Source: Escherichia coli (lineage in GTDB: Bacteria > Pseudomonadota > Gammaproteobacteria > Enterobacterales > Enterobacteriaceae). From it: a stretch of DNA of 64,000 nucleotides. Below are positions 548-40,660 of the stretch, piece by piece. How positions within the stretch are numbered: position 1 is the stretch's first letter; the number at the start of each line of letters is the position of its first letter. A program made the position numbers and the translations under genes. The notes under the pieces were generated by a model. It was not told the origin of the DNA. It did no database searches and saw only the letters and a program-made list of their open reading frames with translations. Location: NCBI RefSeq assembly GCF_044324875.1, contig NZ_CP172185.1. The stretch is one strand, 5' to 3'.

Positions 548-761
548 GGTGTTGTGTCCGTTAGGTGCGGTTAATCAAATTTTTGCCGGATGCGGCGTGA
601 ACGCCTTATACGGCCTACAACGGGCAATTTTATGGCACCCGTTAATCTCAAACTATACCATTAGCACTGGAAGTTGGCACGTACAGGTGGGCAAAAAAAC
701 GAAAACTGGTCAACCAAATATGCGTTTGATTGACCAGTAAGTCTGTAGGGTAATCAGTTAG

Positions 762-23084: not shown

Positions 23085-26000
23085 TTAATAATGCTCCTCA
23101 ATATACCCATACGCCTTCTGGAACAACTCTTTATCTTTCCCTAGTCCAAACTGGGCCAAGGTCAGTAAAAGCGCCTTTTGGATTTCGCGCGGGCCACTGT
23201 TGGAATTTTGCCAGCCATCAAAGCGGGTAGCTTTCACAATTTTATCAATTTGCTCTACAACATCACCGATTAACTTAGGGGTAGTTTCCGGACGTGTTTC
23301 GAGGAAAAGCTTAGTCAACGCCTGTTTATTATCAGCTTCAGTTACTGGGCGCTCGCCCGTTTCGCGCTCGGCTTGAACGGTATCTTTCGCTGCATCCAAC
23401 AGGCCTTTCAACCAGTCAATGGCCTTGATAACACCAGCTTCATAGTCCTGACGCAGTTTTTCAAGGCGCTCGCCCAATGCCACAAATTTAGGATCATGAC
23501 TGCCGCGCAAACGTCCCATAAGATCAATCTCCAGGCGTTTGGCACGTTGTTCCTGCTCTTTAGCGGTCAGGGTAAAAATAGCGTGCTCGTCCATAACCAA
23601 CTCGTCAATATCATCGCGAATACGATTGATATCAGTATGCTCATGGATCATCTTGATTGTTTCGGGGCCAAGGGCAGCCCAAACAAGCGCACCTGTCTGC
23701 CCTACCGGACGCACCGATTCATAAATTTGCGCCAGCCATTTATAGTCCTGACGATAAGAGGTCAAAAAAGGATCTGGGTTGATAGCTGACCATAACTTGG
23801 ATAACACACCAAAGCTGGCAGCGAATTCATCGCGTTTCTCGTTGGTCGGCAGGCATTCCTGCGCGGCCATAATACCTTCAAAACCAGCTATGGACCGATC
23901 CACACCAGGGAAGAAGGACAAACATTTATTCAGTTGTAACGGCAATAGCTCTTTAAATGCCTCAATTCCCTCTACAACTCCTTCAATTTCTTCAGGGTTA
24001 TAGGCCAGAGCGGTACGCAGATTTTCGAAAACGCCGAGGTAGTCGATAATTAATCCCATGTCCTTGCGTACAGTATCGGTTTCGTACAACCGGTTGGTTC
24101 GGCACATGGCCTGAAGAAGAGTATGATCGCGTAGAGGCTTATCGAGGTACATGCAGTAGCAAATCGGGGCATCAAAGCCCGTAAGCAGCTTGGCGGTTAC
24201 GATAATAAGCTGTAATGGATGTTCAGGATCTTTAAAGCATTCAATCAGATCCTTTTGCACCTGTTCTTCGGCATCAATGTGCTGCCAGCGTTCAAAATCG
24301 ACTTGTTTGACTGGCAGCTCCAACTCATCATGCCATTTAAGCCAATCCTTGTTGAGCTTGTCTTTTTTGCCACCCTCTTCAACTTTAACCGGAGCCTGGT
24401 CAACGTTCATAACCACTTCAACCGCATCAAAACCAAGCTTTTCACCGAGCAAATAATACATCTGCACACAGGCTTCGCGATCGTATACCACAACCATGCC
24501 TTTCATCTTTTTCGGCATAACATGGTTGGTAAAATGCTCAGCAATATCATTACTCACCGCAGCCATACGCCTAGGGGATTTCAGCATGATTGCCAGCTTG
24601 CCTGCACGCCTGGACAATGCTGCTTTTTCTTCTTCATCCAGGTTGTTTTCGGTAGCCAGTTGCTCGAACTCTTCATTGATGGCATCACGATCCACTCGGA
24701 GTTCAGCCAGCCGAGGTTCGAACTTCACCGGGTTAGTTGCGCCATCCCGGATCGACTGCTTATAGCTATAGCGGCTCATATAGCGACCCGGATCTTCTTC
24801 GGCACCGAACAATTTGAACGTATTACGATCAATGCCAGAAATCGGAGTACCTGTCAGGCCATAGAAGTGGGCATTGGGCAACGCCCAGCGCATTTTCTCG
24901 CCTAATCCCCCTTCCTGTGTACGGTGAGCTTCGTCAACCAACACAATGATATTGTCACGGTTGTTCAGGCCATTAGGGTTGCTATCGTCAATTTCGATAT
25001 CTTTAAATTTAAAGATGGTGGTGATTAAAATGCCACGGCTGTCTTGTTCAATGTATTCACCCAGCTTTTTGCAGCTTTGCACTTTAATCAGATTCTTAAC
25101 GTCGGCTCCACCAAAGGTCTCGTTAATTTGGCTGTCCAGATCTCGCCGGTCCACAACGATAAGTACCGTCGGGTTTTTTAACGCATTATCGGCACGTAGC
25201 ATTTTGGCGGCGTAAAGCATCAACAAGGATTTACCCGATCCCTGGAAATGCCAAATAAGACCTTTTTTTGGATAGCCTCTGCGAACACGCTCAACGATTT
25301 GTTTTGCTGCTTCAAATTGCGGATAACGCGGCAAGATTTTAACGCGTTTAGGTGGAGTATTTTTGCCCGTTTTGACGGTTGAAAATAATGCGAAAGATTC
25401 CAGTAACTGCAATAAGGTTTGCGGATTTAACAAACTCTCACAGCTATTGAGTACCGATGCTAATCCCGGCAGAATCTCATCACGAAGCTCAGTATTATGC
25501 CAGGGTCCCCAGTCTTTAACTCGGGCATTAATGGCACCATAGGCAAAGGTTTTTCCTTCGCTGGCAAAGCACAGCAAGTTAGGTACAAAGAAAGATTCAA
25601 CATTTTTCCAGTAGTACTTTTTGCCACCCATGAAATCGGCAGCACCGTCTTGCCAGGTCACGCTGGGGCGTGTTGCGGTTTTAACTTCGCCCACTACTAG
25701 CGGTATGCCGTTCACATAAAGAACAATATCAAAATAGACTTCAGTGGCCGCGATATAGCGAACCTGCTGCGCCACCACAAAGTGGTTGTTCTCTATATTG
25801 TCAAAATCAATCAGATTGATGGTGATATGGTCGCCATTCTTACCAAAAGGCAAGGTTTTGTCGGCCATCAACCATTCCTGGAAGTTTTCATTGGCCTTTA
25901 CCAAGCCGGTATGGCGGGCTTCTAAAACCACTCCTCGCAGTTTGTAAATGACCTCATCGGCATAGTCAGGCTGTCTGCCGATATCAGGGTTTAACGAACA

Positions 26001-26147
26001 AAGCGCGTCTTTTAGCCACTCATCAACGAAGATATCCTGCGCTTGTTTAGGCAGGTTTTCACCGTGGCAGTAAGTCCACTTGACTCCGCTTAAACCTTTT
26101 AAACGGTCGATAATTCCATTTTCTGTGACGGTTTGTTCGTTAAACAT
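23085..26147 (-). CDS. hsdR: Type I restriction enzyme R subunit (HsdR)
   Basis: 1020 aa; PD-(D/E)xK-like DIVLYVNGIPLVVGEVK, Walker A QGSGKS, DEAH box VDEAHRTQ, GLTGTP. Confidence 0.9.
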   Translation of the reverse strand: MFNEQTVTENGIIDRLKGLSGVKWTYCHGENLPKQAQDIFVDEWLKDALCSLNPDIGRQPDYADEVIYKLRGVVLEARHTGLVKANENFQEWLMADKTLPFGKNGDHITINLIDFDNIENNHFVVAQQVRYIAATEVYFDIVLYVNGIPLVVGEVKTATRPSVTWQDGAADFMGGKKYYWKNVESFFVPNLLCFASEGKTFAYGAINARVKDWGPWHNTELRDEILPGLASVLNSCESLLNPQTLLQLLESFALFSTVKTGKNTPPKRVKILPRYPQFEAAKQIVERVRRGYPKKGLIWHFQGSGKSLLMLYAAKMLRADNALKNPTVLIVVDRRDLDSQINETFGGADVKNLIKVQSCKKLGEYIEQDSRGILITTIFKFKDIEIDDSNPNGLNNRDNIIVLVDEAHRTQEGGLGEKMRWALPNAHFYGLTGTPISGIDRNTFKLFGAEEDPGRYMSRYSYKQSIRDGATNPVKFEPRLAELRVDRDAINEEFEQLATENNLDEEEKAALSRRAGKLAIMLKSPRRMAAVSNDIAEHFTNHVMPKKMKGMVVVYDREACVQMYYLLGEKLGFDAVEVVMNVDQAPVKVEEGGKKDKLNKDWLKWHDELELPVKQVDFERWQHIDAEEQVQKDLIECFKDPEHPLQLIIVTAKLLTGFDAPICYCMYLDKPLRDHTLLQAMCRTNRLYETDTVRKDMGLIIDYLGVFENLRTALAYNPEEIEGVVEGIEAFKELLPLQLNKCLSFFPGVDRSIAGFEGIMAAQECLPTNEKRDEFAASFGVLSKLWSAINPDPFLTSYRQDYKWLAQIYESVRPVGQTGALVWAALGPETIKMIHEHTDINRIRDDIDELVMDEHAIFTLTAKEQEQRAKRLEIDLMGRLRGSHDPKFVALGERLEKLRQDYEAGVIKAIDWLKGLLDAAKDTVQAERETGERPVTEADNKQALTKLFLETRPETTPKLIGDVVEQIDKIVKATRFDGWQNSNSGPREIQKALLLTLAQFGLGKDKELFQKAYGYIEEHY

Positions 26148-26151
26148 ATAG

Positions 26152-27306
26152 TCAAACTCCTAGAAGCTCATATATTAATGCTTGTCTAAGATTAAAATAA
26201 TGTTCTTTTTTATCTCTCAGCACCTTCAATATTTTCTCGAGCGATTCCAATTTTTTTACTAAAATATCTGAGTCAGTAAATAATTTATTATGAATGAAGA
26301 TATCATCAAAAACTCTTACTGTTACTCTTTGCCTACCTGAAGTGCCTTCCATGTGATGAAGAGCATAATGCCTAAATTTCTTTGTTTTGATTATGTAATA
26401 ACCAAGTTTCTTTAGAAAATGATCTTCAAATTTTGATCTCATCACTATAAACTCAGTGGATCCCACAGCTATACTCTCTTCTGCAAGAAAATCAACAAAT
26501 GCTGCCTTACCATTTTCAAAACAAGGTGTGATTCTAGCCAAAAGGATATCATCTTTTCTAAATTTCATACCAGAAGATTTTCCTGACTTAGTTTCTCCTT
26601 TATAGTCTATATATGGAAGTTCAACATCTAAAGATGCCATATCAACATATGGTATTATTTCATCCACTGACCCAATCTTTGGATTAATTAAAAAAGAATC
26701 ACTTAATGAACTCCAGTCATTCTTTTTCCCAGCTGATGTTGTCGCCAGATAAATACCTACTTCAGCATCTATAACATCCTGATATAACTTTCTTACCGAT
26801 AATATAGTTTCATTAAGATGCATATAGCATTCATGGAATTTGTCAAGAATAACTAAGGCACTATTTTGTTTTTCTCTATCGAGAATATTAAATTTAAAGC
26901 TTACAACATCCTTCCATCTAATATGCTTATTAGTTGAACCAATAGTATTTTTTAACGTATGCTCAGCAAAACTTTCAGATTGAAAGATATATGGAAGCAA
27001 TCGACTTTCAAAACCATGATATTGCTTTGGCGTACATACAATAACCTTCTCACCACAATATCCTTCTCTATCAGCTATCGCGACTTTTCTTAACTGCGGA
27101 TTTCTAGTTAGATAAAGTATGTCTCCTGGGCTAAATTTCTTCCCAAAAGTTGGCCCCATATCATCAGGGGCGATTCCGTAGCGAGAGAAAAATATTTCAC
27201 AATTATCAAAGTCTTCTCCTCTTACACAATATTTAACATTAGGATCTAAATTATTCTTCTCCCATATGTTTTTTTCTTTTACTAAGTCAGAAAGAGTAAT
27301 CTTCAT
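26152..27306 (-). CDS. hsdS: Type I restriction-modification specificity subunit (HsdS), two TRDs
   Basis: 384 aa with two TRD-like halves and conserved HsdS segments; overlaps hsdM stop by 4 bp; very AT-rich. Confidence 0.85.
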   Translation of the reverse strand: MKITLSDLVKEKNIWEKNNLDPNVKYCVRGEDFDNCEIFFSRYGIAPDDMGPTFGKKFSPGDILYLTRNPQLRKVAIADREGYCGEKVIVCTPKQYHGFESRLLPYIFQSESFAEHTLKNTIGSTNKHIRWKDVVSFKFNILDREKQNSALVILDKFHECYMHLNETILSVRKLYQDVIDAEVGIYLATTSAGKKNDWSSLSDSFLINPKIGSVDEIIPYVDMASLDVELPYIDYKGETKSGKSSGMKFRKDDILLARITPCFENGKAAFVDFLAEESIAVGSTEFIVMRSKFEDHFLKKLGYYIIKTKKFRHYALHHMEGTSGRQRVTVRVFDDIFIHNKLFTDSDILVKKLESLEKILKVLRDKKEHYFNLRQALIYELLGV

Positions 27307-28766
27307 ATCTTTCCTCCATTAAAAAAGTAAGAAGAGTTCATATTCAATTCTTTTCTAAACGATTGCCATTTACTTATCTCCCTTGAGAGATTTAAATCTT
27401 TAAATTCTTTTTCTATATACACAGGAACATTTAGATTAAAATCGTTATCTTCGACTTCCTCGATAGAGGCTATATACGTAGTAATATTAGAGACATCCTT
27501 CAAACTAATGTAAGAGTTATAGATATTCATTATATTAATATCATTTAAATAAGCATGATTCCTAGTGGTAATAAGTTCATCATAGGCATTTATAAATAAT
27601 ATTTTCCCTTTTAGCTCAGTTCGTTTATTGCAATTCAACAAAATAATACATGCCGGCATAGGTGAATTATAAAACAATCCAGGGCCAAGACTAATTACAC
27701 ATTCAATAATATCTGTTTGAATAATTTTTTCTCTGAGCTGTTTCTCACTTTCTCTGAAGAGAACTCCATTTGGCCAGAGCATAGCTGCGCGACCAGTATC
27801 AGGCTTCAGGCTTTTAATTATATGGGTATAAAACGCATAATCAGCACAGCCCTGCGGTGGTACACCATAAAGATTACGACCATACGGATCAGCGGCAAAC
27901 TTGTCACGATTCCATTTCTTAATGGAGTACGGTGGGTTAGCAAAAATCACATCAAACTGCTTGAGCCGATCGTTTTCAATAAACTTTGGTTCAGCCAGAG
28001 TATCACCGCGCAGCACATCAAATTCTTCAATATCGTGCAGGAACATATTCATACGAGCAATAGCGGAAGTCAGCAGGTTCACTTCCTGGCCATAAAGGTG
28101 CACAGAGCGCCACTCTTCTCCTCTTGCACGAAGATCCATCACTGCATTTAGCAACATCCCTCCAGTGCCACACGTTGGATCATAGGCTGTTTCACCCGGT
28201 TTTAAGCCCATAATGCGCGTCATTAAATGCACGACTGTTCGGTTGGTGTAGAACTCTGCTGCCGTATGACCGGAATCATCAGCGAACTTTTTAATCAGGT
28301 ATTCGTAGGCTTCACCAAGATCATCCTGGGCGACAGATTTAATGCCGAGCGGAATTTTACTGAAATGTTCAATCAGATCAGCCAGCAGATGATCGGGAAG
28401 GCGCTCTTTATTGGTCCACTGTGCATCACCGAAGACGCCATGTAAACGCGGGTTATTGGCTTCAATTAGTCGAAGCGCATTCTGGATCGCTTCACCAATG
28501 TTTTTACTGGTATTGCGTACCTTTTCCCAACTGGCTTCAGAGGGAATATTGAAACGGTGAAACATCGGCATGGCGGCATATTCAGCATCACCTTCATGGA
28601 GTTCCAGCGCTTCGTTATATTCTTCCAGATAGACATCTGACAGGCGTTTGTAAAACAGCAACGGGAAGATATACTGCTTGTAGTCTGATGCGTCAATTTG
28701 GCCACGAAGAAATTCGGCGGCTCCCCAGAGCAGCTCTTCCAGCTTTTTATTACTCATAGTACTCAT
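27303..28766 (-). CDS. hsdM: Type I N6-adenine methyltransferase subunit, paralogue 2 (HsdM)
   Basis: 487 aa; motif I YDPTCGTGGML, motif IV NPPY; start overlaps upstream hsdM stop (ATGA at 28763-28766); 3' third of the gene is markedly AT-rich. Confidence 0.9.
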   Translation of the reverse strand: MSTMSNKKLEELLWGAAEFLRGQIDASDYKQYIFPLLFYKRLSDVYLEEYNEALELHEGDAEYAAMPMFHRFNIPSEASWEKVRNTSKNIGEAIQNALRLIEANNPRLHGVFGDAQWTNKERLPDHLLADLIEHFSKIPLGIKSVAQDDLGEAYEYLIKKFADDSGHTAAEFYTNRTVVHLMTRIMGLKPGETAYDPTCGTGGMLLNAVMDLRARGEEWRSVHLYGQEVNLLTSAIARMNMFLHDIEEFDVLRGDTLAEPKFIENDRLKQFDVIFANPPYSIKKWNRDKFAADPYGRNLYGVPPQGCADYAFYTHIIKSLKPDTGRAAMLWPNGVLFRESEKQLREKIIQTDIIECVISLGPGLFYNSPMPACIILLNCNKRTELKGKILFINAYDELITTRNHAYLNDINIMNIYNSYISLKDVSNITTYIASIEEVEDNDFNLNVPVYIEKEFKDLNLSREISKWQSFRKELNMNSSYFFNGGKI

Positions 28767-30262
28767 ACCTCGAACCCTTCTTTGATAAGCAGGGCCTCCA
28801 GCTCCTCTTCTGCTTTTTCCAGCTCAGCCAGCTTCCGTTGAAAATCTTTGAGCGCTTCTTCCACAGTAATGGTTTCTTCTTCGAGTGGCTTTTGCACATA
28901 ACGAGCAATATTTAGATTGAAGTCATTTTCTTCAATCTCCTTCAGAGGAACCCAGCGTGCAACGCCTTCGATTTCTTTTGCATCTGGCCCTTGTTGCGCC
29001 TGGTCATGATAGATTTGGTATATTTCATCGGCCTGCTTGTTGGACAGCGTATTCTGCGCACGCCCCTTGGTATAGATTTCTTCAGCATTGATGATCAATA
29101 CATGATCTTTATGCGCTGCCGGACGTGATTTACGCAACACCAAAATACACGCAGGAATCCCAGTCCCATAGAACAGGTTGGAAGCAACACCAATAATCGC
29201 CACAATGCGATTCTCTTGCAGTAATTTGGTTCGAATTGCCCCCTCTGCGCCGCCACGAAACAGCACACCATGAGGTAATACGACAGCCATACGTCCATTG
29301 TCGTTAAGTGAAGCAAACATATGCTGCACCCAGGCAAAATCACCATTTGTTTTAGGCGCCAGGCCATATCGCTTACGGCCATAGGGATCGTTCGACCACA
29401 GATCGTATCCCCATTCTTTCAAGCTAAACGGTGGGTTGGCAACAACGCAGTCAAAGGTTTCTAAACGATCGCTTTTTAAAAATTTAGGTTCGCGTAACGT
29501 ATCCCCTCGGACAATATCGAAATCTTCCTGTCCATGCAGGAACAGATTCATACGCGCAATAGCTTCCGTCGTTAAGTTCTTTTCCTGACCCTTGATTTTT
29601 AGTAAACGCGGATCACCACCATTTTCTTTTACATGGTGGATGGTCTCAAGCAGCATACCACCGGTACCACAGGCGGGATCGTAGACACTCTCACCGGCTT
29701 TTGGATCAAGAATGTTAACCATCAAACGAACGATAGTTCGTGGGGTATAGAACTCACCGGCTTTCTTATTGGCTTTGTCTGCAAAGCGTTTGATCAGATA
29801 CTCGTATGCGCGCCCCATATCATCGTCACGGACACTAGAAACGCCAAGGTTCACCTTATTGAAGTGATTGAGTAACGTAGCCAGTAACTCATCAGAAAGG
29901 CGTTCTTTATTGGTCCAGCTGGCATCGCCAAAAATGCCATGCAGTTTAGGGTTTGCCAGTTCTATACCACGGAAGGACTCTTTTAAAGCCTGACCGATGT
30001 CCTTGGTCTCAGCGAAAACATCGCGCCAGTGGCAATTTTCAGGTATCTGAATACGGTGAAACATCTTGCCCTTGGCAAGCTCTGCATCCCCAATGCTCTC
30101 CATCGCATCGGCAAATTCTTCGTCATACACGTCACAAATGCGCTTGAAGAACAGGATGGGGAAAATGTACGTTTTGTAATCTGACGCATCAATGGGCCCT
30201 GTAATAATATGGGCTGCATGCCATAGATGGGCCTCGAGATCTTTTAGGTTAATCAGTGTCAT
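28763..30262 (-). CDS. hsdM: Type I N6-adenine methyltransferase subunit, paralogue 1 (HsdM)
   Basis: Start chosen at MTLINLKDLEAHLW (ATG 30260-30262); GEFYTPRTIV, YDPACGTGGML, NPPF motifs; 499 aa. Confidence 0.9.
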   Translation of the reverse strand: MTLINLKDLEAHLWHAAHIITGPIDASDYKTYIFPILFFKRICDVYDEEFADAMESIGDAELAKGKMFHRIQIPENCHWRDVFAETKDIGQALKESFRGIELANPKLHGIFGDASWTNKERLSDELLATLLNHFNKVNLGVSSVRDDDMGRAYEYLIKRFADKANKKAGEFYTPRTIVRLMVNILDPKAGESVYDPACGTGGMLLETIHHVKENGGDPRLLKIKGQEKNLTTEAIARMNLFLHGQEDFDIVRGDTLREPKFLKSDRLETFDCVVANPPFSLKEWGYDLWSNDPYGRKRYGLAPKTNGDFAWVQHMFASLNDNGRMAVVLPHGVLFRGGAEGAIRTKLLQENRIVAIIGVASNLFYGTGIPACILVLRKSRPAAHKDHVLIINAEEIYTKGRAQNTLSNKQADEIYQIYHDQAQQGPDAKEIEGVARWVPLKEIEENDFNLNIARYVQKPLEEETITVEEALKDFQRKLAELEKAEEELEALLIKEGFEV

Positions 30263-30505
30263 TGTTGTCTCTTTTCGATCCTGCAGTGCTTGAACTCTCA
30301 GCAACTCATGGATTTCACAGTAAAAAAGCAAGTAAAGCGATTCCACAACCACCTGAGCGTTCAATATGTATGACGCCTTTACCCAAGTTGCTTAAATCAA
30401 GGAAATTGCCTGAGATAATACTCTGGCATCAGAATGATACCAAGTTGAAGGGCTGATTTCCGCATCAATACCTTGTGGTAATAGGGGATTACTCTTTTAC
30501 CCTTA

Positions 30506-31156
30506 TTGGCGCAAAATGGCGGCATTTCCTCATTTCTCCTTCGGAGCATCTTACGCGCTATAACCACTCTCGTTTTTTCCTATTCCCATGCAGATGAAGC
30601 ACTACGCAATGAACTTGAGAAGCATCTCTCCCCGCTGAAGCGAACCGGGAAGATCACAACATGGCACGATCGCCGCATCGTTCCTGGTCAGGAGTTCGAA
30701 CGTCAGATCGACCACTATTTTTCGCAAGCAGATATCATCCTGATCCTGATCAGCAGTGACTTTATTGCTTCTGATTACTGCTATCAGGTAGAGATGAAAA
30801 ACGCACTGGAACGGCATGACCGGGGCGAGGCGGTGGTCATTCCGGTAATTTTAAGAAACTGTGCATGGCATCAGTTAGAATTCGGCAGCATTATGGCGGC
30901 GACTATCGACGGTAAACCCATCACTAAGTTTGCCACCCACGATGAAGGCTACGTTCAGGTCGTCGAGGCTGTCTCGCGTGCCATTGCCCGGATGGAAGCC
31001 AAAAAACCACAGCAAACCATACATATCCCTTCACCGGCTCCGGCGAATCCGATCTTTCAGGGAGTAGATTCCGTTTTTACACCGTGTTCAAGCAACCTTA
31101 TTCTATCTGTTATAGCCAGGATAATGTTGTTCGAAACAGTATTAACGAAACTCTAA
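30506..31156 (+). CDS. TIR-domain protein (ThsB-like, single-domain); start codon uncertain (TTG)
   Basis: LVFSYSHADE...ADIILILISSDFIASDYCYQVEMKNAL matches bacterial TIR core motifs; no in-frame ATG upstream of the TIR beta-strand, and no clear ribosome-binding site. Confidence 0.6.
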   Translation: MAQNGGISSFLLRSILRAITTLVFSYSHADEALRNELEKHLSPLKRTGKITTWHDRRIVPGQEFERQIDHYFSQADIILILISSDFIASDYCYQVEMKNALERHDRGEAVVIPVILRNCAWHQLEFGSIMAATIDGKPITKFATHDEGYVQVVEAVSRAIARMEAKKPQQTIHIPSPAPANPIFQGVDSVFTPCSSNLILSVIARIMLFETVLTKL

Positions 31157-32231
31157 GCCTTGCTGATAACAGCCAGACTCTTGGTTTTCGTGCTCTGATG
31201 GGAGGCTTCAGTCGTGGAACTTCACGAGACGAACTATTGACCAATGAAGGTATGTCGGAACATCTCTGGGAAATGTTCTTCGGGCTAATCAAGCAAAGAA
31301 TGTCCCGATAATTTGCCATATCACAGTCGGGCATACTGCCCGATTTTTGTGCTGTCATTATTGGCAATATCTCAATAGGCGTTGAGAAATGGTGCAATTT
31401 AATCTTGCCAGAGCGCTGTTACTTGGGGACGAAATTAATGGGCTCCTGCTGTAGTTACATCAACGCCTGTCTATACAAAAACAGGCGTAGCAAATTCATG
31501 CAGGCAAATACGTTTTCTTAAGCGGCACCAATAGCTTAGTCTCTATATCCACTTGCTCATAGTTTTCCACTAACGCGCGTACCAAATCATCCAGCGTCCA
31601 TAGCGTCAACGGGATTGTAGAACGATCGGCCTCATAACGCGCATCCTTGCTGAATCCGCCGGTACTAACATACAGCCCGCGATCGTCTTTATGGCGGCCA
31701 CCGATAAAGCTACGGATTTGCTGGCTGCTCATCTGTTCCCGCCGGTGCTTCACCTCAACAATAATGCGCGGATTTTCAAACCCAAATCCGTCAGGGGAAG
31801 CAATGATATCTTTCCCACGGTCAGCACCCGCAGGCGATACCTGAGTTTTATATCCCATGCTACGTAATACGCCAGCGACCAGATTCTGCATCTCATCCCA
31901 GTCGAGACGGTTGATACGATCCTTGATGCCTTCAAAAGCAATCATTTCCATGTCGCGCAGAGGATTAGAAACAACCTCATCCTCTTCACCTGAAACAGGT
32001 ACTTCCGGCACGACATCTGAGACAGGCTTTTTGCCCTGCACTAATTCATTCACGGCAAAATCAGGCACCTGAAAAACTGTCAGCGTTGAGCCAAGGGTGT
32101 TTCTGGTTGCATCACTCAGACTATCGCGCTTAATCTCTTCCGTATTCCACTTCACTTTACGGGCGATGCCCATGCCATCTTCAAGCCACTCGGCATGAAA
32201 CTCAAAATCTGAGGCAATTTTCCCTATTAAA

Positions 32232-33515
<1,284 letters not shown>

Positions 33516-33893
33516 TCCGATTAGAAGGTGAATAAGTGATAGCCCAATCGCCTTTCTGCATTTCATTCACAAAGCGCCAAACCTGAGAAGCACCAGAGCG
33601 AACTGTGCCTGGCTTAGTCTGTGGCTCAAGCTCCTGATACCGGATAAACAACTGCTCTCTTGAGCATCCAGGTTTCACATAGGGAGCGAGCTGCGACCAA
33701 CCAATTGCAACAACCTGTTTGTCTCTGAAGTCGTCGTACAATTTTCCGCCATCACCGCGGATCATCCACATCTTAGTCGCCACAATAATTCCTTCTGAAA
33801 ATACTTCATCGTTATACCGGGACGTGATCATTCCATTCAGCCACCTTATCCAGGGGAAAAACACCGATAAGATGGCTAATCAAAATGTCTGTT

Positions 33894-36800
33894 CTAAACC
33901 TGACGCCTATCAAGACTATTATAAATAGCCTCAATCTCACCTTTCAGGTTATCACCAGAGTAAACCATCGATGTATCGTATCGTTCATATCGCGCTTCCC
34001 GTGTCGCACTAAACCAGTTGAACGATCCCACGCATAGCAAACCATCATCACCAATAACAATTTTGCTATGAACACGGTTTACCAGCTTTGTAGCAATACC
34101 CAGCGCATTCAGTTTCTCCAGCGCCGCTTTAAGGTTCTGCTGCTTCTCTTTTCGCTTCTCAAAATCTTTATGTTCAGTGTTATAGCTTCTGTCAGTGACT
34201 ATCGTGACGTTAATTCCACGTGAACACGCCGCAATCATGGAATCAAGAAAACCCGTTTGCTCCAGCTTTTGCCAGGTCAGCCATGGAGAAACTATCGTGA
34301 TGTGTTTATCGGTATTTTCAAACGTCTGATTCAGGAAATTATCATGCTGCTCCACACCATGGAGTGTGTAGATTTTGGTCTCGGAAGTTTTTAAATCCTT
34401 ACGCTCTTTATAATCAAAAGAGAGCGCATTCTTCTCGGACTCAAAGAGATATTTTGCCAGTAATCCCCGCGGAGATGAGGCTGGCTGGATCTCAAACAGG
34501 TCCATATCGCCGAAGACCAGGAAACTGTCCTTCGCACGGGAGACAGCAACGTTCAGCATGCTGTTATCGCTATCAATAAACCCGCCATCCTCATGCTTTG
34601 AATAGACTGGCGAGAATATAACAATCGCTCTTTCCGCCCCCTGAAGAGAATGCACGGTGCCCACGGTGAGCGACGTTTCATTCGCGCCTGTACTGATGCC
34701 TTGTTTACCCAGCGCCTGTTTGATAGTCGATACCTGCGCGCTAAAAGGCGTCACGATACCGACAACTTCATGAAGCGATTTGCCGTAATGCGCTTCAATA
34801 TCTTGCTGGTTATCTGTCAGCCAGGCAGCTATCGTTTCAGCCTCAAGCAAATTATATCGACTTCCGCTACTTGCCAGCGCTCCTTTACCATCAATATGGA
34901 GATAACCCATTGCGGGCATTAAATTGCTCTCTTCACGCCCTCTTTTAGGCAACAACTTACCGTGATAGCAGAGCGTATTACAGTATCCAATAATATTATC
35001 GAAGCACCGGCGGTGTTCATATAGGTACATACCACGAGCCAGTTCGGGATCATATTGATAGCGCGAAGCAAACTGAGCTATTTTCATAACGCTGCCAGAT
35101 GCGGCACTTTTACCAAGGTCTGCGATTGCCGTATATTTCTCGGTAATCTCTTCTTGCGTACTGCCAGACAGAATTTTTTCCGCCAGCATGTTACCGATAT
35201 CAATCGCAGGAGCAATACTCCATATTGGCGGGATCTGCTCCGTATCGCCAATCACTAATGCCTTCTTAGCTAATGCAAACGAGGCAGCAGCCACTTCAGG
35301 AAGCACCTGTCCGGCTTCATCGACAATGAGTAAATCGGCAAAATCATACAAATAACTTTTCTCGAATTTACGTTGTCCTTTGTGCTCACTTATCTGCATA
35401 TTGCCGGGCAGCATATAGCATGTCATCACCACACATGGAATGAGTTTCATTCGACGTTGCCAACGGGCAGTTACTCCTTTAGCGCCTTTTTTCTTCTTCT
35501 CTTCCTGCAGATCATCAATTCTGGCCATATCCATCAGCCAACGACCTTCCCAGTAGTGAGTCGTCAGTAAAAATGCAGGGAAGCGAATCTGCGTATCAGC
35601 CAGTTCATCGGCCTGTGAGAAGCTCAGTTCCTCGTCGCCCTCATACCCTAAATCAAGTGTCAGCCTCTGCCACTCCTGAACCGCCTGCTGTTCTTTAAGA
35701 ACGATTTCATGGGCGGAGTCAATCTGCTTCCGGTATGTTGTTTGCTCGCGTTCAGCGGAATTGAGCAGCCCATCAATATTACGTTCGATAGTTTCAGGAT
35801 CAGACCACTGATTTCCTGCAATCAGCGCGCCTAATTTATCTTCGAGAAACAGCTGTATTTGGTACTGTCGCTTATTGCGAACCGCCGGGAGCCAGGAAAA
35901 TAATGAATAGATCAGTGATTCACCGGCGCGATATTTTTTCCATTCCGTTTTAGCACTCTTCAGTAGAGTAACTTTTTGTTCTTGCCCGGAGAGTAATTTA
36001 TTTAAATTATCGAGATATTGCTCAATGTTATCAGCAATAAGCTCACGCGCCGCCCGAACCTGGCTTAACGTTTGCCATGTTGCGTTCAGTCTTATCAGTT
36101 GCTCGGATTTTGCTGCCAACTGACCATGCAGGAGTTCAATGACCTTTTCAGGGGATGAACACTCTTTTTCAGGAAAGGCTGCCTTAGCCTTCTCCAGATA
36201 AAACAGCAGTGCATCCTCTACATACTCTTTTGACTCAACCTGGTTGAAGAAATCTTCAGTTTGATATTTTTTGGCGGCCTCAGCTTTACGAGTGCTTGAG
36301 GGAAAATAAGCGCCGAAGCTTTTCAGCTCTGGCAACCATCGTCCGGCCATCGCACCGGTGCCCTGGGAAAAATCTTTCCCGAACGCCTCGATAATGTTCG
36401 TGACAGCCTGGTTATTCGTTGAGGTCGCGATAATGACCGGAGGCTCAGATTTTTCGAGAGCCGCTCGGGCCCACTGCGTGGCGATGATAGAAAGCACCAG
36501 CGTGGTTTTTCCGGTTCCCGGAGGGCCATTAACAGCAAGGATATCGCCATGTCTGGCATCCAGAAAATGGCTTAAGGCATCGCGCTGAGCCTTTGCCAGC
36601 GGAAACTTATCTCCGGAGTGTCCAAGCCTGTCGCTGAATTTTGCTCCTGGGGCCAGCAAAGACTCTGCAGCATGAACCTCTCGCGAGGCGAAGCGATTGA
36701 AGAGTGGCACATCCTTCTTGCAAACAAGCAGGTGATCATAAAGCGAAAGGATATGGAAACTGGCACCGCCAGATTGCGCCGTTTTAACAATATAACCGTG

Positions 36801-37409
36801 CTCAGCGAGTTCATATTGCTCAGGATTTTTAATCCAGTCGCCGGCAACGTTCTTCAGCAGCCTCTCTGAATCATCCAGATATTGACGCCAATCCTGCTGC
36901 AAGGCTGCATATCGTGCTTCCCGTTCTTCATCCGTTTCGGCAGTGTTATCAACGCTGTCATCAAACTTGATAGAGAATGACGTATGTGTCGTTTTATATT
37001 TGTCATACTGCTCAATCTCACCAATCGAAAATGCCCCTTTTGGCAAAGGTTCAAGCAGGTCTCTGGGAATGGAGGTCGCTGGCGTCGGGTATAAAAAACC
37101 CTCACGGCTTAGCAAGGCTGGCGTCACTAGCGGGGTAACAATATCAGGCACGCCTGCGGAACGGTCCTTACCATGCTGCAGTAACCGAAAATAAACTTTT
37201 GGGCGCAAGACGACATCGACCGTTTCGACATCGTCTTTTTCTCCCTCAAAAAATTTACTGACAATCGCTTCGTCAAGACGTCCCGCCGCTATCCCATGCC
37301 AGTGAGTGAAATTTTGGGCGTCTTTCCGTTCAAAGCTGCCCTTTCCTGACTCAGCATCCGCAAGCGAGTTGCGCCAGTATGAGGCAAACCCTAAAGCATT
37401 TTCATCCAT
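33894..37409 (-). CDS. SF1 (Upf1/DNA2-like) helicase fused to a C-terminal PLD-family (HKD) nuclease domain; Mokosh type II-like single-protein defence candidate
   Basis: 1171 aa; Walker [11 protein letters not shown], Walker [10 protein letters not shown], motif [19 protein letters not shown]; C-terminal [19 protein letters not shown] (HxK-x4-D-x6-GSxN). Confidence 0.8.
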
Positions 37410-37734
37410 TACCAGTCCTATGACTCAATGAAATCCATTGATTTATCGAATATAAAATCACCGTATGGATAACTATTGTCCACGTTGAAAGGCTGGCTGC
37501 AATGTTTTGTTCACGCTTCGATACAAATACTCAGGTTATACGGAGTTCAGAAAACGACCATATCATGCTGCATGGCACATAAAAGCTTTATAACCGAAGC
37601 AGCAAAGGATTACCGGCTGCGCAGCACGCCACGAAAGCCCGTGAGCTCTACTGGACAGCGTTCAGTGCAATATTGGAGTCTGTAAGTCCAGAAAATATCA
37701 CTGTCGAAGATGGTTCTGTATGTAGGTGCGCCAG

Positions 37735-38112
37735 CTATTGTTTTGTCCGATGCTTGCGAATAAAAGCATTCAAAATGTCGCCTTCACCATGCATGACAGA
37801 AAAAGAATATTCACATTCTTTCTTTATCAAGATTCCACATAATTCCTTGTGCAAATCTACATTAACTCCCTTTCCTTTCTGTGCTTTCTTCACACCGAGC
37901 TCACATGAACTGATTAATTCAACGTTACAGGGTTTCTTCAAATAATTCACACCATCAATTAAGCCCTGGAGAATGCATCTATTTGCGGTCGTATTACTGT
38001 AGGAGAAGGTCAGATATTTTATTTTCCCTTCACATTCCAGCACAACTTCCGCCGAACCTTCACGTGTTGCAGCATCACAACTTCCTGTTGAATATATTTT
38101 CACCATCTTCAT
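37735..38112 (-). CDS. Small RNase H-like fold protein with apparently substituted catalytic residues
   Basis: 125 aa; VKIYSTGSC, NRCILQG, VNVDLHKEL align by eye to the RNase HI blocks FTDGSC, NRMELMA, KNVDLWQRL, but the D10/E48/D70 positions read T/I-C/S. Confidence 0.45.
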   Translation of the reverse strand: MKMVKIYSTGSCDAATREGSAEVVLECEGKIKYLTFSYSNTTANRCILQGLIDGVNYLKKPCNVELISSCELGVKKAQKGKGVNVDLHKELCGILIKKECEYSFSVMHGEGDILNAFIRKHRTKQ

Positions 38113-38180
38113 TTTGTACCTTTCCCCTTACCAAACGAATCATGACATCCTATATCAAAGGCATTCTCGTCAAAACTTTA

Positions 38181-38960
38181 CTATCTCAGTAAATTCTCCC
38201 GATGCCACTCCAGATAACAATACGATTCAACAGAAAACGCCTTTATTTTCTCCGGCAACAAACATTGCTCTTTAACGCTAATATCCAGCTCCTTACTAAT
38301 TAATAAATGCCCATCGTTCTCAAACGAAATCCATCCCTGATCGAATAGAATATCAATATGCGCAGCCAATATAATTCCATTAAAAGGATCAAGACGTTCA
38401 TTTCCATTCTCGCAGGCAGCCCACGGCTTTATATGGCTGGCACGCAGTAAAGGTGCAAAAGTCGTTCCCGTAACAGGGCATGCCGGATACAACATGAGAC
38501 AATTTTTCCGAAAGGTACCTTGCCCCAGCCGTGCCGCAATCAGCTGCTCGCGTACGGTATCTTCAATACTTTTATCCTGCTGAATAGCAAGACAGTCACG
38601 TTGTGCCTGTTCATCTCTATCAGTCGATATTAACGAAAGAACGCGCTGCTCAATTGCACTATCAGAAAGCACACTCAATCGCTGATGAACACGCTGCGCT
38701 GAATGAGAAAGCGCAGCAGGAGCACCCTGCTCGTCACGCCAACCGACACGCACATCACTAAGCCAGGAATCAAAACGGTCACGACTATTTTTCAGACTAT
38801 TGTGAAACTCGCTGGCAGTTTTGCCCGCTCCAAATCGAGGATAAAACAAGGCAAAAGCCTCTTTCCATTTCTGAACACCCAGTCCTGCGGGTGGTTGAGA
38901 GTTACCATACTTCGACAAATACCACGCCACTTCAAGCAAATCGTCTTCAGAGCTATTCAA
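38181..38960 (-). CDS. HNH-family nuclease with N-terminal domain of unknown function
   Basis: 259 aa; C-terminal CPVTG...LLRASHIKPW...NERLDPFNGIILAAHIDILFDQG resembles the HNH_2-type endonuclease motif. Confidence 0.7.
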   Translation of the reverse strand: MNSSEDDLLEVAWYLSKYGNSQPPAGLGVQKWKEAFALFYPRFGAGKTASEFHNSLKNSRDRFDSWLSDVRVGWRDEQGAPAALSHSAQRVHQRLSVLSDSAIEQRVLSLISTDRDEQAQRDCLAIQQDKSIEDTVREQLIAARLGQGTFRKNCLMLYPACPVTGTTFAPLLRASHIKPWAACENGNERLDPFNGIILAAHIDILFDQGWISFENDGHLLISKELDISVKEQCLLPEKIKAFSVESYCYLEWHRENLLR

Positions 38961-39323
38961 TATTACGTCCTGTTTTTGCAGAGTAAATTATCACCAGATT
39001 ATATCTGAAAAAATCATTTACTAAACTGATCTGCTTACCTGCAAAACGGTACTGCAAACGCTAATACTCAGAACCATTAAAAGGAACAAGCAGGTGCATA
39101 CCGCTGCCATCGGTCAGTTTGTACTGCTTATCCGTTGGCCTGGCTGTTCTGACCTTGATATCTGTTAACGCCATGCTTATCCCCTCCCTGTTGGTACAAG
39201 CATTATCGAACCGGAAATACCATCATCTGTACCAACATGTGTTGGTAGATGTACGTTGATATCGGTTGACCTTGAGAGAGTTAATATAGCGAAAAAGGTA
39301 GGTAACTGCTGGATTTCAGGCAT

Positions 39324-39347
39324 AAAAAAAGACCTCAGTTGAGGTCT
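39324..39347 (-). terminator. Rho-independent terminator directly downstream of leuX
   Basis: On the - strand: stem agacctca-act-gaggtct followed by a T-run. Confidence 0.5.
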
Positions 39348-39360
39348 ATTTACATACTTT

Positions 39361-39445
39361 TGGTGCCGAAGGCCGGACTCGAACCGGCACGTATTTCTAC
39401 GGTTGATTTTGAATCAACTGCGTCTACCGATTTCGCCACTTCGGC
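39361..39445 (-). tRNA. leuX: tRNA-Leu (anticodon CAA), leuX
   Basis: 85-nt sequence GCCGAAGTGGCGAAATCGG...ATTCAAAAT...GGTTCGAGTCCGGCCTTCGGCACCA on the - strand; anticodon loop contains CAA; encoded CCA end. Confidence 0.9.
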
Positions 39446-39640
39446 ACTGAAGAGGTATGCGGAAAACGTTGTGGATTATACCTGTCGCACGCCACCATGC
39501 AAGCGCCAGCTTGCTCGCACCTCGCTAAGTGCTGAAATTTTCAGCATTGCATACAGCGATGTGTAACCTTTGTCACACTCCAGGCACCCCGCCCTGCCAT
39601 GCTCTACACTTCCCAGACAACACCAGAGAAGGACTAAAAA

Positions 39641-40660
39641 ATGTCGATGATAAAAAGCTATGCCGCAAAAGAAGCGGGCGGCGAACTGGAACTTTATGAG
39701 TACGATCCCGGTGAATTGAAGCCACAAGATGTTGAAGTGCAGGTGGATTACTGCGGGATCTGCCATTCCGATCTGTCGATGATCGACAACGAATGGGGAT
39801 TTTCACAATATCCGCTGGTTGCCGGGCATGAGGTGATTGGGCGCGTGGTGGCGCTCGGGAGCGCCGCGCAGGATAAAGGTTTGCAGGTCGGTCAGCGTGT
39901 CGGGATTGGCTGGACGGCACGCAGCTGCGGGCATTGCGATGCCTGTATTAGCGGTAATCAGATCAACTGCGAGCAAGGTGCGGTGCCAACAATTATGAAT
40001 CGCGGCGGTTTTGCCGAGAAGTTGCGTGCGGACTGGCAATGGGTGATTCCGCTGCCAGAAAATATTGATATCGAGTCTGCCGGGCCGCTGTTGTGCGGCG
40101 GTATCACGGTCTTTAAACCACTGTTGATGCACCATATCACTGCCACCAGCCGCGTTGGGGTAATTGGTATTGGCGGGCTGGGGCATATCGCTATAAAACT
40201 TCTGCACGCAATGGGATGCGAGGTGACAGCCTTTAGTTCGAATCCGGCGAAAGAGCAGGAAGTGCTGGCGATGGGTGCCGATAAAGTGGTGAATAGCCGC
40301 GATCCGCAGGCACTGAGTGCCCTGGCAGGGCAGTTCGATCTCATTATCAACACCGTCAACGTCAGCCTCGACTGGCAGCCTTATTTTGAGGCGCTGACGT
40401 ATGGCGGTAATTTCCACACCGTCGGTGCGGTTCTCACGCCGCTGTCTGTTCCGGCCTTTACGTTAATTGCGGGCGATCGCAGTGTCTCAGGTTCGGCAAC
40501 CGGTACGCCTTATGAGCTGCGTAAGCTGATGCGCTTTGCCGCCCGCAGCAAGGTTGCGCCGACTACCGAACTGTTCCCGATGTCGAAAATTAACGACGCT
40601 ATCCAGCATGTACGCGATGGTAAAGCGCGCTACCGCGTGGTTCTGAAAGCCGACTTCTGA
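39641..40660 (+). CDS. ahr: NADPH-dependent aldehyde reductase Ahr (YjgB), zinc-dependent medium-chain dehydrogenase
   Basis: 339 aa; GHEVIGRV zinc-binding motif, GIGGLGH Rossmann motif; recognised as Ahr/YjgB. Confidence 0.9.

Follow-up and report, generated by a model that had tools for sequence, protein, structure and literature searches.

The large open reading frame on the minus strand of the window, a 64,000-nt stretch of the Escherichia coli chromosome at the leuX tRNA island, is supported by sequence comparison as mkoC, the gene of the single-protein defence system Mokosh type II. Considered as a whole, the evidence makes an intact, probably functional mkoC allele in the leuX island, acting by the mechanism proposed below, a highly likely explanation. 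The finding itself is not new, as the system has already been named and experimentally tested. For a near-identical allele (SG150), the single gene, cloned together with its native upstream sequence, confers phage protection on E. coli (Millman et al., 10.1101/2022.05.11.491447); the validated clone held mkoC plus the 326 nt preceding it and no other gene (Table S2 of that preprint). Mutation of either the ATP-binding site or the PLD active site abolished this defence (10.1101/2022.05.11.491447). Phage protection by the window allele can be expected from its approximately 98% identity to the tested allele, so that it is probably functional.

Identification of the window gene as mkoC

According to the ORF list and its translation, mkoC comprises an ATG start and 1171 codons plus a stop (Table 1), and the chance of a stop-free run of this length is approximately 4e-25 per start. 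The PADLOC model for MkoC (PDLC03924) matched aa 1-1169 to model positions 1-1135 of 1136 (E = 0, 1688 bits). The validated SG150 protein ('EcMokosh II', from E. coli 5-366-08_S1_C1, IMG gene 2586378093) has the same length of 1171 aa and shares the domain order and a leuX-type island with the window protein, and over the 399 aa printed in Table S2 of Millman et al., 389 residues are identical (97.5%). As a full-length proxy for SG150 we used the RefSeq protein WP_000344089.1, which does not differ from SG150 across the legible stretches (upstream 326 nt included); its identity to the window protein is 97.9% over the full length, corresponding to approximately 25 substitutions. Of the 10 positions at which the first 399 aa depart from the validated allele, 9 lie clustered between residues 32 and 175, in the N-terminal domain, and the comparison with the proxy showed enrichment in the same segment as well as in the PLD domain. 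Furthermore, residues A995/L996 match the domain boundary in the constructs published for EcMokosh II, and the mass calculated for the window protein, 131.6 kDa, agrees with the published 132-kDa monomer. Beyond the coding sequence, the window differs from SG150 by 9 mismatches in the upstream 326 nt and by an IS621 copy in the downstream Mrr-type gene. The upstream region is identical in locus L002, which also has a leuX context, and unrelated in the pheV, pheU and selC contexts. A sigma-70 consensus scan of the minus strand at 37410-37735 found no strong promoter site.

Table 1. Features of mkoC and its surroundings in the window (nucleotide positions refer to the whole stretch).
Feature	Residues (aa)	Position (nt)	Strand	Basis
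mkoC, complete CDS (single-protein Mokosh type II)	1-1171	33894..37409	-	ORF list, PADLOC MkoC, SG150 identity
N-terminal family-specific domain	1-265	36615..37409	-	Conserved motifs including IPRDLLEP
RecA1, first part, with Walker A and motif Ia	266-350	36360..36614	-	Pfam AAA_11, AAA_30; motif search
Long, mostly helical insertion in RecA1 (predicted)	351-678	35376..36359	-	AF2 full-length model
Rest of RecA1 and RecA2	679-990	34440..35375	-	Pfam AAA_11 C-terminal part, AAA_12
PLD-family nuclease domain, single HKD	1026-1171	33897..34334	-	Pfam PLDc_2 1.1e-9, PLDc 9.6e-4
Upstream non-coding region, presumed native promoter and RBS		37410..37735	-	Homologous to 326 nt in SG150 clone
IS621 (IS110-family) transposase	326 aa	32340-33320		
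Mrr_cat restriction-endonuclease gene, split parts		31496-32234 and 33515-33765		Pfam on intact orthologue
RNase H-like ORF, between mkoC and HNH gene	125 aa	37735-38112		
HNH gene		38181-38960		

The subtype follows from the arrangement of the domains. Mokosh type I likewise combines an Upf1-like COG1112 helicase with a PLD nuclease, there as MkoA with a Ser/Thr kinase domain and a separate MkoB, whereas the window MkoC is one polypeptide whose N-terminal domain is different: helicase and PLD domain are fused in one ORF, kinase families are absent from the Pfam matches, and none of the neighbouring ORFs is MkoB. In PADLOC, the MkoA models matched only aa 692-994 (the RecA2 region; 1e-32 to 1e-36), and MkoB matched aa 1005-1138 (1.6e-17). 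Partial matches to PDC-S37, Hhe, PLuB, ProA, DrmC, RecD and DinG models of PADLOC and NCBIfam were rejected, being confined to the P-loop, RecA2 or PLD regions and far below cut-offs. In RefSeq, the mkoC product is named 'AAA domain-containing protein'.

The original prediction, made from the letters of the DNA, had described one large 1171-aa ORF of Mokosh type II-like architecture. The ORF was borne out, with the minus strand as a detail missing there, and all four motif stretches quoted for it occur in the translation. The full-length PADLOC match, which had been named as a check, and the approximately 98% identity to validated MkoC place the protein in Mokosh type II itself. The window gene is thereby a textbook case of a named and validated defence system that PADLOC and DefenseFinder would call automatically, and it is usable as a positive control, since both system and subtype were correctly recognised from the raw letters.

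Literature names YjhR as the fused Mokosh protein of E. coli K-12. We take K-12 yjhR, located in the same leuX-proximal region, to be only a short C-terminal remnant, whereas the window gene is complete. IS-truncated mkoC remnants were also seen in other strains, e.g., L008.

Domain organisation of MkoC

MkoC consists of an N-terminal family-specific domain, an Upf1-like SF1B helicase and a C-terminal PLD-family nuclease domain. The helicase shows motifs I, Ia, II, III, V and VI on a two-RecA fold with an insertion in RecA1. Walker A (GPPGTGKT) corresponds to aa 295-302 (nt 36504-36527; the longer quoted stretch spans aa 294-303) and motif II (LLIVDEAGQ) to aa 693-701, with DEAGQ at aa 697-701 (nt 35307-35321). 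Motif III is present within aa 679-990, and motifs V and VI occupy aa 917-967 (the quoted motif V, aa 917-932). GPPGTGKT and DEAGQ are conserved in 8 alleles and 62 homologues. Pfam matches comprised AAA_11 (aa 272-487 and 679-729), AAA_12 (776-969) and PLDc_2 (1028-1143). A PDB sequence search with the helicase region returned Upf1, IGHMBP2, DNA2 and SEN1, and Foldseek returned SETX, Upf1, IGHMBP2, Aquarius, DNA2 and ZNFX1 with E-values from 1e-17 to 1e-11 (5e-17 to 1e-12 for SETX, Upf1, IGHMBP2 and DNA2). The helicase fold, the motifs and an accessory insertion in RecA1 are common to MkoC and the SF1B helicases Upf1, SETX (Sen1), IGHMBP2 and DNA2; however, identity to this group is only 11-14%, and the MkoC insertion is much longer and helical. 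DNA2, too, combines an SF1B helicase and a nuclease in one chain, but the nuclease of MkoC is of the PLD instead of the PD-(D/E)XK type and lies at the C-terminus.

The AAA_11 match covers only the start of the insertion, and aa 488-678 are without a Pfam match. In the AF2 model of full-length MkoC (mean pLDDT 93), the insertion contains helices at aa 420-458, 462-495, 508-530, 538-586 and 597-630, and it is predicted to form long helical hairpins placed like the accessory domains 1B and 1C of Upf1.

For the N-terminal domain (aa 1-265), no Pfam or PDB relative was found, and Pfam gave nothing in aa 1-270. R116 and P121 are invariant in this domain, which may represent a sensor or regulatory element.

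The PLD domain harbors a single HKD motif, as judged from the motif search and the single PLDc_2 match. It follows the pattern H1114-x-K1116-x4-D1121-x6-G1128-S-x-N1131 (nt 34017-34070; quoted stretch, aa 1114-1132), with the residues reading H1114-S-K1116-IVIG-D1121-x6-G-S-F-N1131. Across 62 homologues, D1121 and G1128 are invariant, while H1114, K1116, S1129 and N1131 are conserved in at least 90%. PADLOC DrmC matched the domain (6.8e-7), and NCBIfam NucT matched weakly. In a single-sequence PDB search with this domain, the top matches, to repeats of designed 'Bagel' proteins, were spurious, with NucT and Nuc found only weakly; the PLD assignment therefore rests on Pfam, PADLOC and motif conservation. 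Sequence and fold searches found no solved Mokosh type II structure in the PDB copy used.

This organisation agrees with what had been read from the letters. The complete Upf1/DNA2-like SF1 core is matched by AAA_11 and AAA_12 and folds like Upf1, SETX and IGHMBP2; the C-terminal PLD-family motif falls within PLDc_2 and follows HxK(x)4D(x)6GSxN without deviation, so that it aligns with PLD nucleases; and the N-terminal 290 aa or so, in which no motif had been recognised, largely coincide with the segment on which Pfam is silent. No housekeeping helicase family of NCBIfam claims MkoC.

Genomic context, distribution and selection

On its downstream side, mkoC is adjoined by an Mrr-type gene interrupted by a 1280-bp copy of IS621. 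Placement between an Mrr-like and an HNH gene, as originally predicted, thus needs correction on both sides: the Mrr-type gene is real, but the adjoining 326-aa ORF is the IS621 transposase, and the HNH gene is present, but a 125-aa ORF separates it from mkoC. The catalytic residues D10 and E48 are absent from this RNase H-like ORF. Other neighbours include a TIR gene. An Rfam scan of positions 30000-40000 matched tRNA-Leu only, with no family matching the non-coding end of IS621. The island map is thereby corrected to one with IS621 inside the Mrr-type gene and an additional ORF between mkoC and the HNH gene.

Among complete E. coli genomes, mkoC is present in 888 of 5426, leaving 84% without it, which makes it an accessory gene. 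It occurs in at least 4 tRNA-linked islands (leuX, pheV, pheU and selC) of lower GC, with neighbours that differ between islands. In leuX islands, mkoC is accompanied by the HNH gene, the Mrr-type gene and the 125-aa ORF, while in the pheV, pheU and selC islands an integrase gene or other genes lie upstream of it, and downstream lies a gene for a phosphoethanolamine transferase. Homologues were found on 65 plasmids, and phage records yielded only 6 matches, weak or fragmentary.

All 8 alleles examined are intact, have 1171 aa and are 95.5-99.8% identical to the window protein, with Walker A, motif II and HKD present in 8/8. They are under purifying selection, with dN/dS between 0.01 and 0.25 per domain and the lowest value (0.01) in the first part of RecA1. 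Diversifying selection on the N-terminal domain was considered in view of the substitutions at aa 32-175 and rejected, since domain-level dN/dS across the 8 alleles does not exceed 0.25 anywhere. At least 18 complete genomes retain an allele that differs from that of the window by 2 aa. Furthermore, PLD-less relatives of approximately 970-1030 aa were observed that end at the same domain boundary as the helicase part of MkoC and adjoin ART-PolyVal, GGDEF, ABC-3C CTD1 or unknown genes. Together with the E. coli allele series, they could provide material for work on the mechanism of Mokosh type II.

Proposed mechanism and alternative explanations

Purified EcMokosh II is a monomer that cleaves ssDNA, nicks plasmid DNA and leaves dsDNA uncut (10.1101/2025.07.10.664194). 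In the same study, cleavage required both halves of the protein and did not need Walker A/B, Walker mutants still being able to cleave; the substrate panel was without RNA, and in one phage panel defence was seen against the ssDNA phage SECphi17 only. The account of concentration dependence in that study is inconsistent, the text describing robust cleavage at all concentrations and the legends at 1 uM only. For the validated allele, it is worth noting that Walker mutants lose defence in vivo yet cut DNA in vitro. Mokosh type II genes are transcribed in natural E. coli strains, with similar expression patterns (10.64898/2025.12.14.694197).

We propose that MkoC would patrol the cell as a monomer and that its helicase, expected by homology to move 5'-to-3' on single strands, would use ATP to load onto or travel along phage nucleic acid exposed in single-stranded form. 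Candidate targets include ssDNA genomes, replication intermediates, RNA and RNA:DNA hybrids. Helicase movement would deliver the tethered PLD domain to its substrate, which would be cut via a phosphohistidine intermediate. In single-HKD PLD nucleases such as Nuc and Zucchini, two copies together form the active site. Therefore, we infer that two MkoC molecules would meet on one nucleic-acid molecule, or else on a platform induced by the phage, and such a pairing requirement would leave the lone monomer harmless to the host. That the published protein is monomeric in solution speaks against this dimer step. The N-terminal domain would be the best candidate for sensing the trigger or gating the pairing. 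More speculatively, and with a doubtful prospect in our estimation, this domain could be a new kind of sensor that gates HKD pairing, and the N-terminal and helicase parts could form a chassis reusable with other effectors; if true, gated pairing would explain how a monomeric nuclease stays harmless to its host.

Other explanations concern the gene itself. A protein without a defence role, either a housekeeping helicase acting on DNA or RNA or a PLD enzyme of phospholipid metabolism, would suit the generic RefSeq name and a weak NCBIfam cardiolipin synthase match in the PLD region (17.8 bits, the cut-off being 290). However, the housekeeping models of NCBIfam all stay well below their cut-offs, and the distribution of mkoC, missing from most E. 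coli genomes and located in lower-GC tRNA-linked islands, together with the defence phenotype published for a near-identical allele refutes this explanation, whose probability we regard as negligible. A multi-gene system uniting mkoC with its HNH, 125-aa and Mrr-type neighbours is also very unlikely. The leuX islands examined do hold these 4 genes on one strand and in the same order, but such a system is rejected because all three neighbours are absent beside mkoC in the pheV, pheU and selC islands; moreover, the validated clone carried none of them, the Mrr-type gene is disrupted in the window and the RNase H-like ORF is without its catalytic residues. Somewhat less improbable, though still unlikely, is that the window allele is silent in its island, or altered or inactivated by its approximately 25 substitutions. 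The clustering of 9 of the first 10 of these at aa 32-175, the upstream mismatches and the promoter scan would fit with this, as would the inactivation of the adjacent Mrr-type gene by IS621, which indicates that parts of the island are decaying. Against it stand the full-length ORF with all catalytic motifs intact, the purifying selection across 8/8 intact alleles, the maintenance of an allele only 2 aa away and the reported transcription of Mokosh type II genes (10.64898/2025.12.14.694197).

For the intact, probably functional mkoC favoured here, the nature of the target can be read differently. It is conceivable, if rather doubtful, that the main target in vivo is phage RNA or RNA:DNA hybrids and that ssDNA cleavage in vitro represents a side activity. 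The closest helicase relatives (Upf1, SETX/Sen1, IGHMBP2 and Aquarius) are RNA helicases, RNA was missing from the substrate panel, and domain homology to MOV10L1 and PLD6, which act on piRNA precursors, has been reported for a fused E. coli Mokosh protein named yjhR (TM-scores 0.74 and 0.63). However, Upf1-like helicases such as DNA2 also use ssDNA, and it is ssDNA that the purified protein cuts, besides nicking plasmid, and an ssDNA phage that was the sole one defended against. Apart from the question of the target, MkoC resembles the eukaryotic piRNA pair of MOV10L1, an Upf1-like RNA helicase, and PLD6/Zucchini in directing the same two enzyme families against selfish nucleic acids. MOV10L1 and PLD6 are separate, mitochondria-anchored proteins that act on RNA and make guide RNAs, whereas nothing suggests that MkoC makes guides. 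Zucchini, an ssRNA/ssDNA endonuclease, has a single HKD, as does MkoC.

Identity of the Mokosh gene

The gene mkoC, a single unbroken ORF of 1171 codons starting with ATG, was confirmed by both the ORF list and the translation at the position originally predicted, with the minus strand as its coding strand; the chance of a stop-free run of this length is approximately 4e-25. Its product is covered end to end by the PADLOC model for MkoC, the Mokosh type II protein (E = 0, 1688 bits). The remaining PADLOC and NCBIfam matches are only partial and far below the family cut-offs, and no housekeeping helicase family claims the protein. SG150, a clone from E. coli 5-366-08_S1_C1 encoding an MkoC of 1171 aa, is listed as 'Mokosh type II' and flagged as validated (Table S2, 10.1101/2022.05.11.491447). 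Over the 399 residues printed in that table, the window protein is 97.5% identical to SG150 MkoC, and the 326-nt regions preceding the two ORFs have 9 mismatches. Furthermore, RefSeq WP_000344089.1 (strain 19KM1776, same leuX-type context) matches SG150 exactly wherever the protein and upstream sequence of the latter can be read, and the window protein departs from it by 25 substitutions in 1171 residues (97.9% identity). The published purified protein, EcMokosh II, was truncated as 'M1-A995' and 'L996-end' and has a monomer of 132-kDa (10.1101/2025.07.10.664194); residues A995 and L996 are both present in the window protein, whose mass computes to 131.6 kDa, in agreement with these constructs and this monomer. 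Taken together, the PADLOC match, the identity to SG150 and WP_000344089.1, and the fit of boundary and mass identify the window gene, at the sequence level, as an allele of the type II Mokosh gene that serves as archetype and has been tested experimentally, which supports the Mokosh type II-like reading of the original prediction. Mokosh type II is an already-known system, tested in a near-identical allele.

Features of the window, of the MkoC protein and of loci with PLD-less relatives
Feature	Position	Strand	Basis or remark
ATPase and methyltransferase gene pair	19373-23004	+	
Type I restriction-modification locus	23085-30364	-	
hsdR	23085-26147	-	
hsdS	26152-27306	-	
Two consecutive methyltransferase genes, type I locus	27303-28766 and 28763-30364	-	
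Orphan ThsB-like TIR-domain gene	30506-31156	+	PADLOC ThsB, 3.4e-89
Split Mrr_cat restriction-endonuclease gene	31496-32234 and 33515-33765	-	
IS621 copy (IS110 family), 1280 bp	32235-33514	-	
326-aa IS110-family transposase ORF in IS621	32340-33320	-	NCBIfam, 256 bits
mkoC	33894-37409	-	
125-aa ORF between mkoC and HNH gene	37735-38112	-	RNase HI-like N-terminal half
HNH endonuclease gene	38181-38960	-	PADLOC HNH, 8.8e-21; adjoins leuX end of island
tRNA-Leu(CAA) leuX	39361-39445	-	
SF1B helicase	MkoC aa 266-990		AF2 model
AAA_11	MkoC aa 272-487 and 679-729		Pfam
Walker A GPPGTGKT	MkoC aa 295-302		Motif search
Helical insertion (~330 aa) splitting RecA1	MkoC aa 351-678		AF2 model
Motif II DEAGQ	MkoC aa 697-701		Motif search
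AAA_12	MkoC aa 776-969		Pfam
Originally quoted helicase motif	MkoC aa 917-932		Motif search
Short linker	MkoC aa 991-1025		AF2 model
Single PLD domain	MkoC aa 1026-1171		AF2 model
PLDc_2	MkoC aa 1028-1143		Pfam
PLD/HKD motif	MkoC aa 1114-1132		Exact fit to HxK(x)4D(x)6GSxN
PLD-less relatives	L009 5001-7982; L010 5001-7973; L014 920-3823; L015 4001-6988; L012 143-3160		

Domain anatomy and proposed mechanism

An SF1 helicase core followed by a C-terminal PLD motif had been proposed for this protein, and both are borne out by the motif and Pfam searches, which recovered all quoted motifs. The N-terminal region of approximately 290 aa, for which no motif had been recognised, is likewise devoid of Pfam matches over aa 1-270. 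The full-length AF2 model, built from 62 diverse homologues, is confident (mean pLDDT 93, pTM 0.88) and comprises four parts; across these homologues, the HKD residues of the PLD domain are invariant or nearly so. Sequence and fold searches of the PDB returned SETX/Sen1, Upf1, IGHMBP2, Aquarius, DNA2 and ZNFX1 as the solved structures nearest to the helicase, in line with an Upf1-like SF1 core, and no Mokosh structure was found by either search.

A near-identical mkoC allele alone gives phage resistance, and mutation of either the ATP-binding site or the PLD active site abolishes this defence (10.1101/2022.05.11.491447). Purified EcMokosh II is monomeric, cuts ssDNA, nicks plasmid and leaves dsDNA uncut; cleavage requires both protein halves and survives mutation of Walker A or B, and within the tested panel protection extended to the ssDNA phage SECphi17 only (10.1101/2025.07.10.664194). 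The same preprint is self-contradictory on the concentration dependence of EcMokosh II activity, which its text describes as robust throughout the concentrations used and its legends restrict to 1 uM; this bears on whether the activity requires a protein-protein encounter.

We infer that in vivo the Upf1-like motor would spend ATP on locating single-stranded phage nucleic acid or moving along it, and would deliver the tethered PLD nuclease to this substrate. In single-HKD PLD nucleases such as Nuc and Zucchini, the catalytic site is assembled from two subunits. Since each MkoC chain has one HKD motif, two MkoC molecules would, by analogy, probably have to meet on the substrate, and such a pairing requirement would leave free monomers innocuous. 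As a sensor or gate, the N-terminal domain would be the prime candidate. The main alternative, less likely, would be an RNA or RNA:DNA-hybrid target, towards which the RNA-helicase ancestry of the MkoC helicase and the parallel with MOV10L1/PLD6 point.

Relatives, distribution and selection

In MkoC relatives of approximately 965-1036 aa, the N-terminal domain and the helicase are retained, and the chain ends at the A995/L996 boundary, without a PLD domain. At the five loci examined (L009, L010, L014, L015 and L012), no PLD gene was found nearby, and the closest neighbours vary: ART-PolyVal (26-nt gap), GGDEF (8-nt gap), ABC-3C CTD1 (overlapping start), and unknown proteins of 872 and 683 aa. 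These relatives may represent an effector-swapped family on the Mokosh II helicase chassis. More broadly, a phmmer search against 1.84 billion cluster representatives yielded 1140 at E<=1e-30, the best 150 of which are mostly co-linear and approximately 1100-1280 aa long. Homologues were also found on 65 plasmids and are very rare among phage records.

Among 5426 complete E. coli genomes, 888 (16%) have mkoC, in all cases on the chromosome, with at least 80% of the gene present in 839 of them and a nucleotide identity of 90-99.7% (mostly 95-99%). The gene is spread over at least four tRNA-linked islands. In the leuX island, the order is HNH gene, 125-aa ORF, mkoC and Mrr-type gene; in the pheV and pheU islands, mkoC immediately follows the island integrase, ahead of a phosphoethanolamine-transferase gene, and in the selC island it lies a few genes past the integrase, adjoined by phosphoethanolamine-transferase gene fragments. 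The 326 nt upstream of mkoC in the leuX context are unrelated to those in the pheV, pheU and selC contexts, pointing to different promoters in front of nearly identical coding sequences. One pathogenicity island with mkoC (L003) also has pap or tia genes.

Eight alleles, including that of the window, all encode 1171 aa with identical catalytic motifs, and dN/dS per domain is 0.01-0.25. These values, together with the intactness of the eight alleles, indicate that mkoC is kept by purifying selection, independent of its neighbours. Truncated or IS-interrupted copies occur in a minority of genomes, e.g., a truncated copy at L008 and an IS1-interrupted one in strain SW07163.

The leuX island

In the window, which is E. 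coli chromosome, mkoC lies in an island beside leuX; as in strain M7424, the genes that follow are ahr, yjgR, lptGF and pepA. GC content is 46-47% across mkoC versus approximately 52-55% in the flanking core. An 11.6-kb P4-like satellite that M7424 has at leuX is missing from the window, which has approximately 1.3 kb extra, the IS621 copy. The M7424 satellite prophage (L001 25487-37083; integrase, primase, psu, ogr/delta, gop/beta) lies between the HNH gene and the tRNA, and its attachment core is marked by an overlap of 20 nt at the 3' end of the tRNA (window 39361-39380). The approximately 400 bp between the HNH gene and the tRNA are collinear with an M7424 stretch annotated as a partial integrase (DUF4102) pseudogene.

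Of the neighbours originally assigned to mkoC, the Mrr-type gene is real but split by IS621, the adjoining 326-aa ORF being the IS110-family transposase, and the HNH gene is present but separated from mkoC by the 125-aa ORF. IS621 is inserted near codon 84 of the 330-codon Mrr_cat gene, a PADLOC candidate (PDC-S02) that is intact in M7424, and the identical insertion is annotated in further E. coli genomes. In the orientation of the IS, the junction reads AATCGGAC/CT...IS.../CT/ATTTAAT, which resembles the natural IS621 target core of the bridge-RNA work. The N-terminal 69-78 aa of the 125-aa ORF match RNase HI (NCBIfam E 2e-11; PHROG 'Rnase H'); its counterparts of the catalytic D10 and E48 are T and I, so that the product is RNase H-like but probably non-catalytic. 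Among the loci examined, it accompanies mkoC in the leuX-type island only.

Placement in a defence island is a fair description, as the island also holds the TIR gene, the type I locus and the ATPase and methyltransferase pair. No ThsA-type partner was found near the TIR gene in the window, and this gene carries a frameshift in strain 19KM1776. GC content in the type I region is very low (0.34 over 26-28 kb). The first gene of the pair encodes a 577-aa AAA/ABC-type ATPase with weak matches to AriA, PtuA, GajA and mad3, and the second a 633-aa N6-methyltransferase with a fused type I specificity-like domain, matching type I MTase models and mad2. RefSeq names for both are generic only, and the two might form a methylation-associated defence pair of an unclassified kind.
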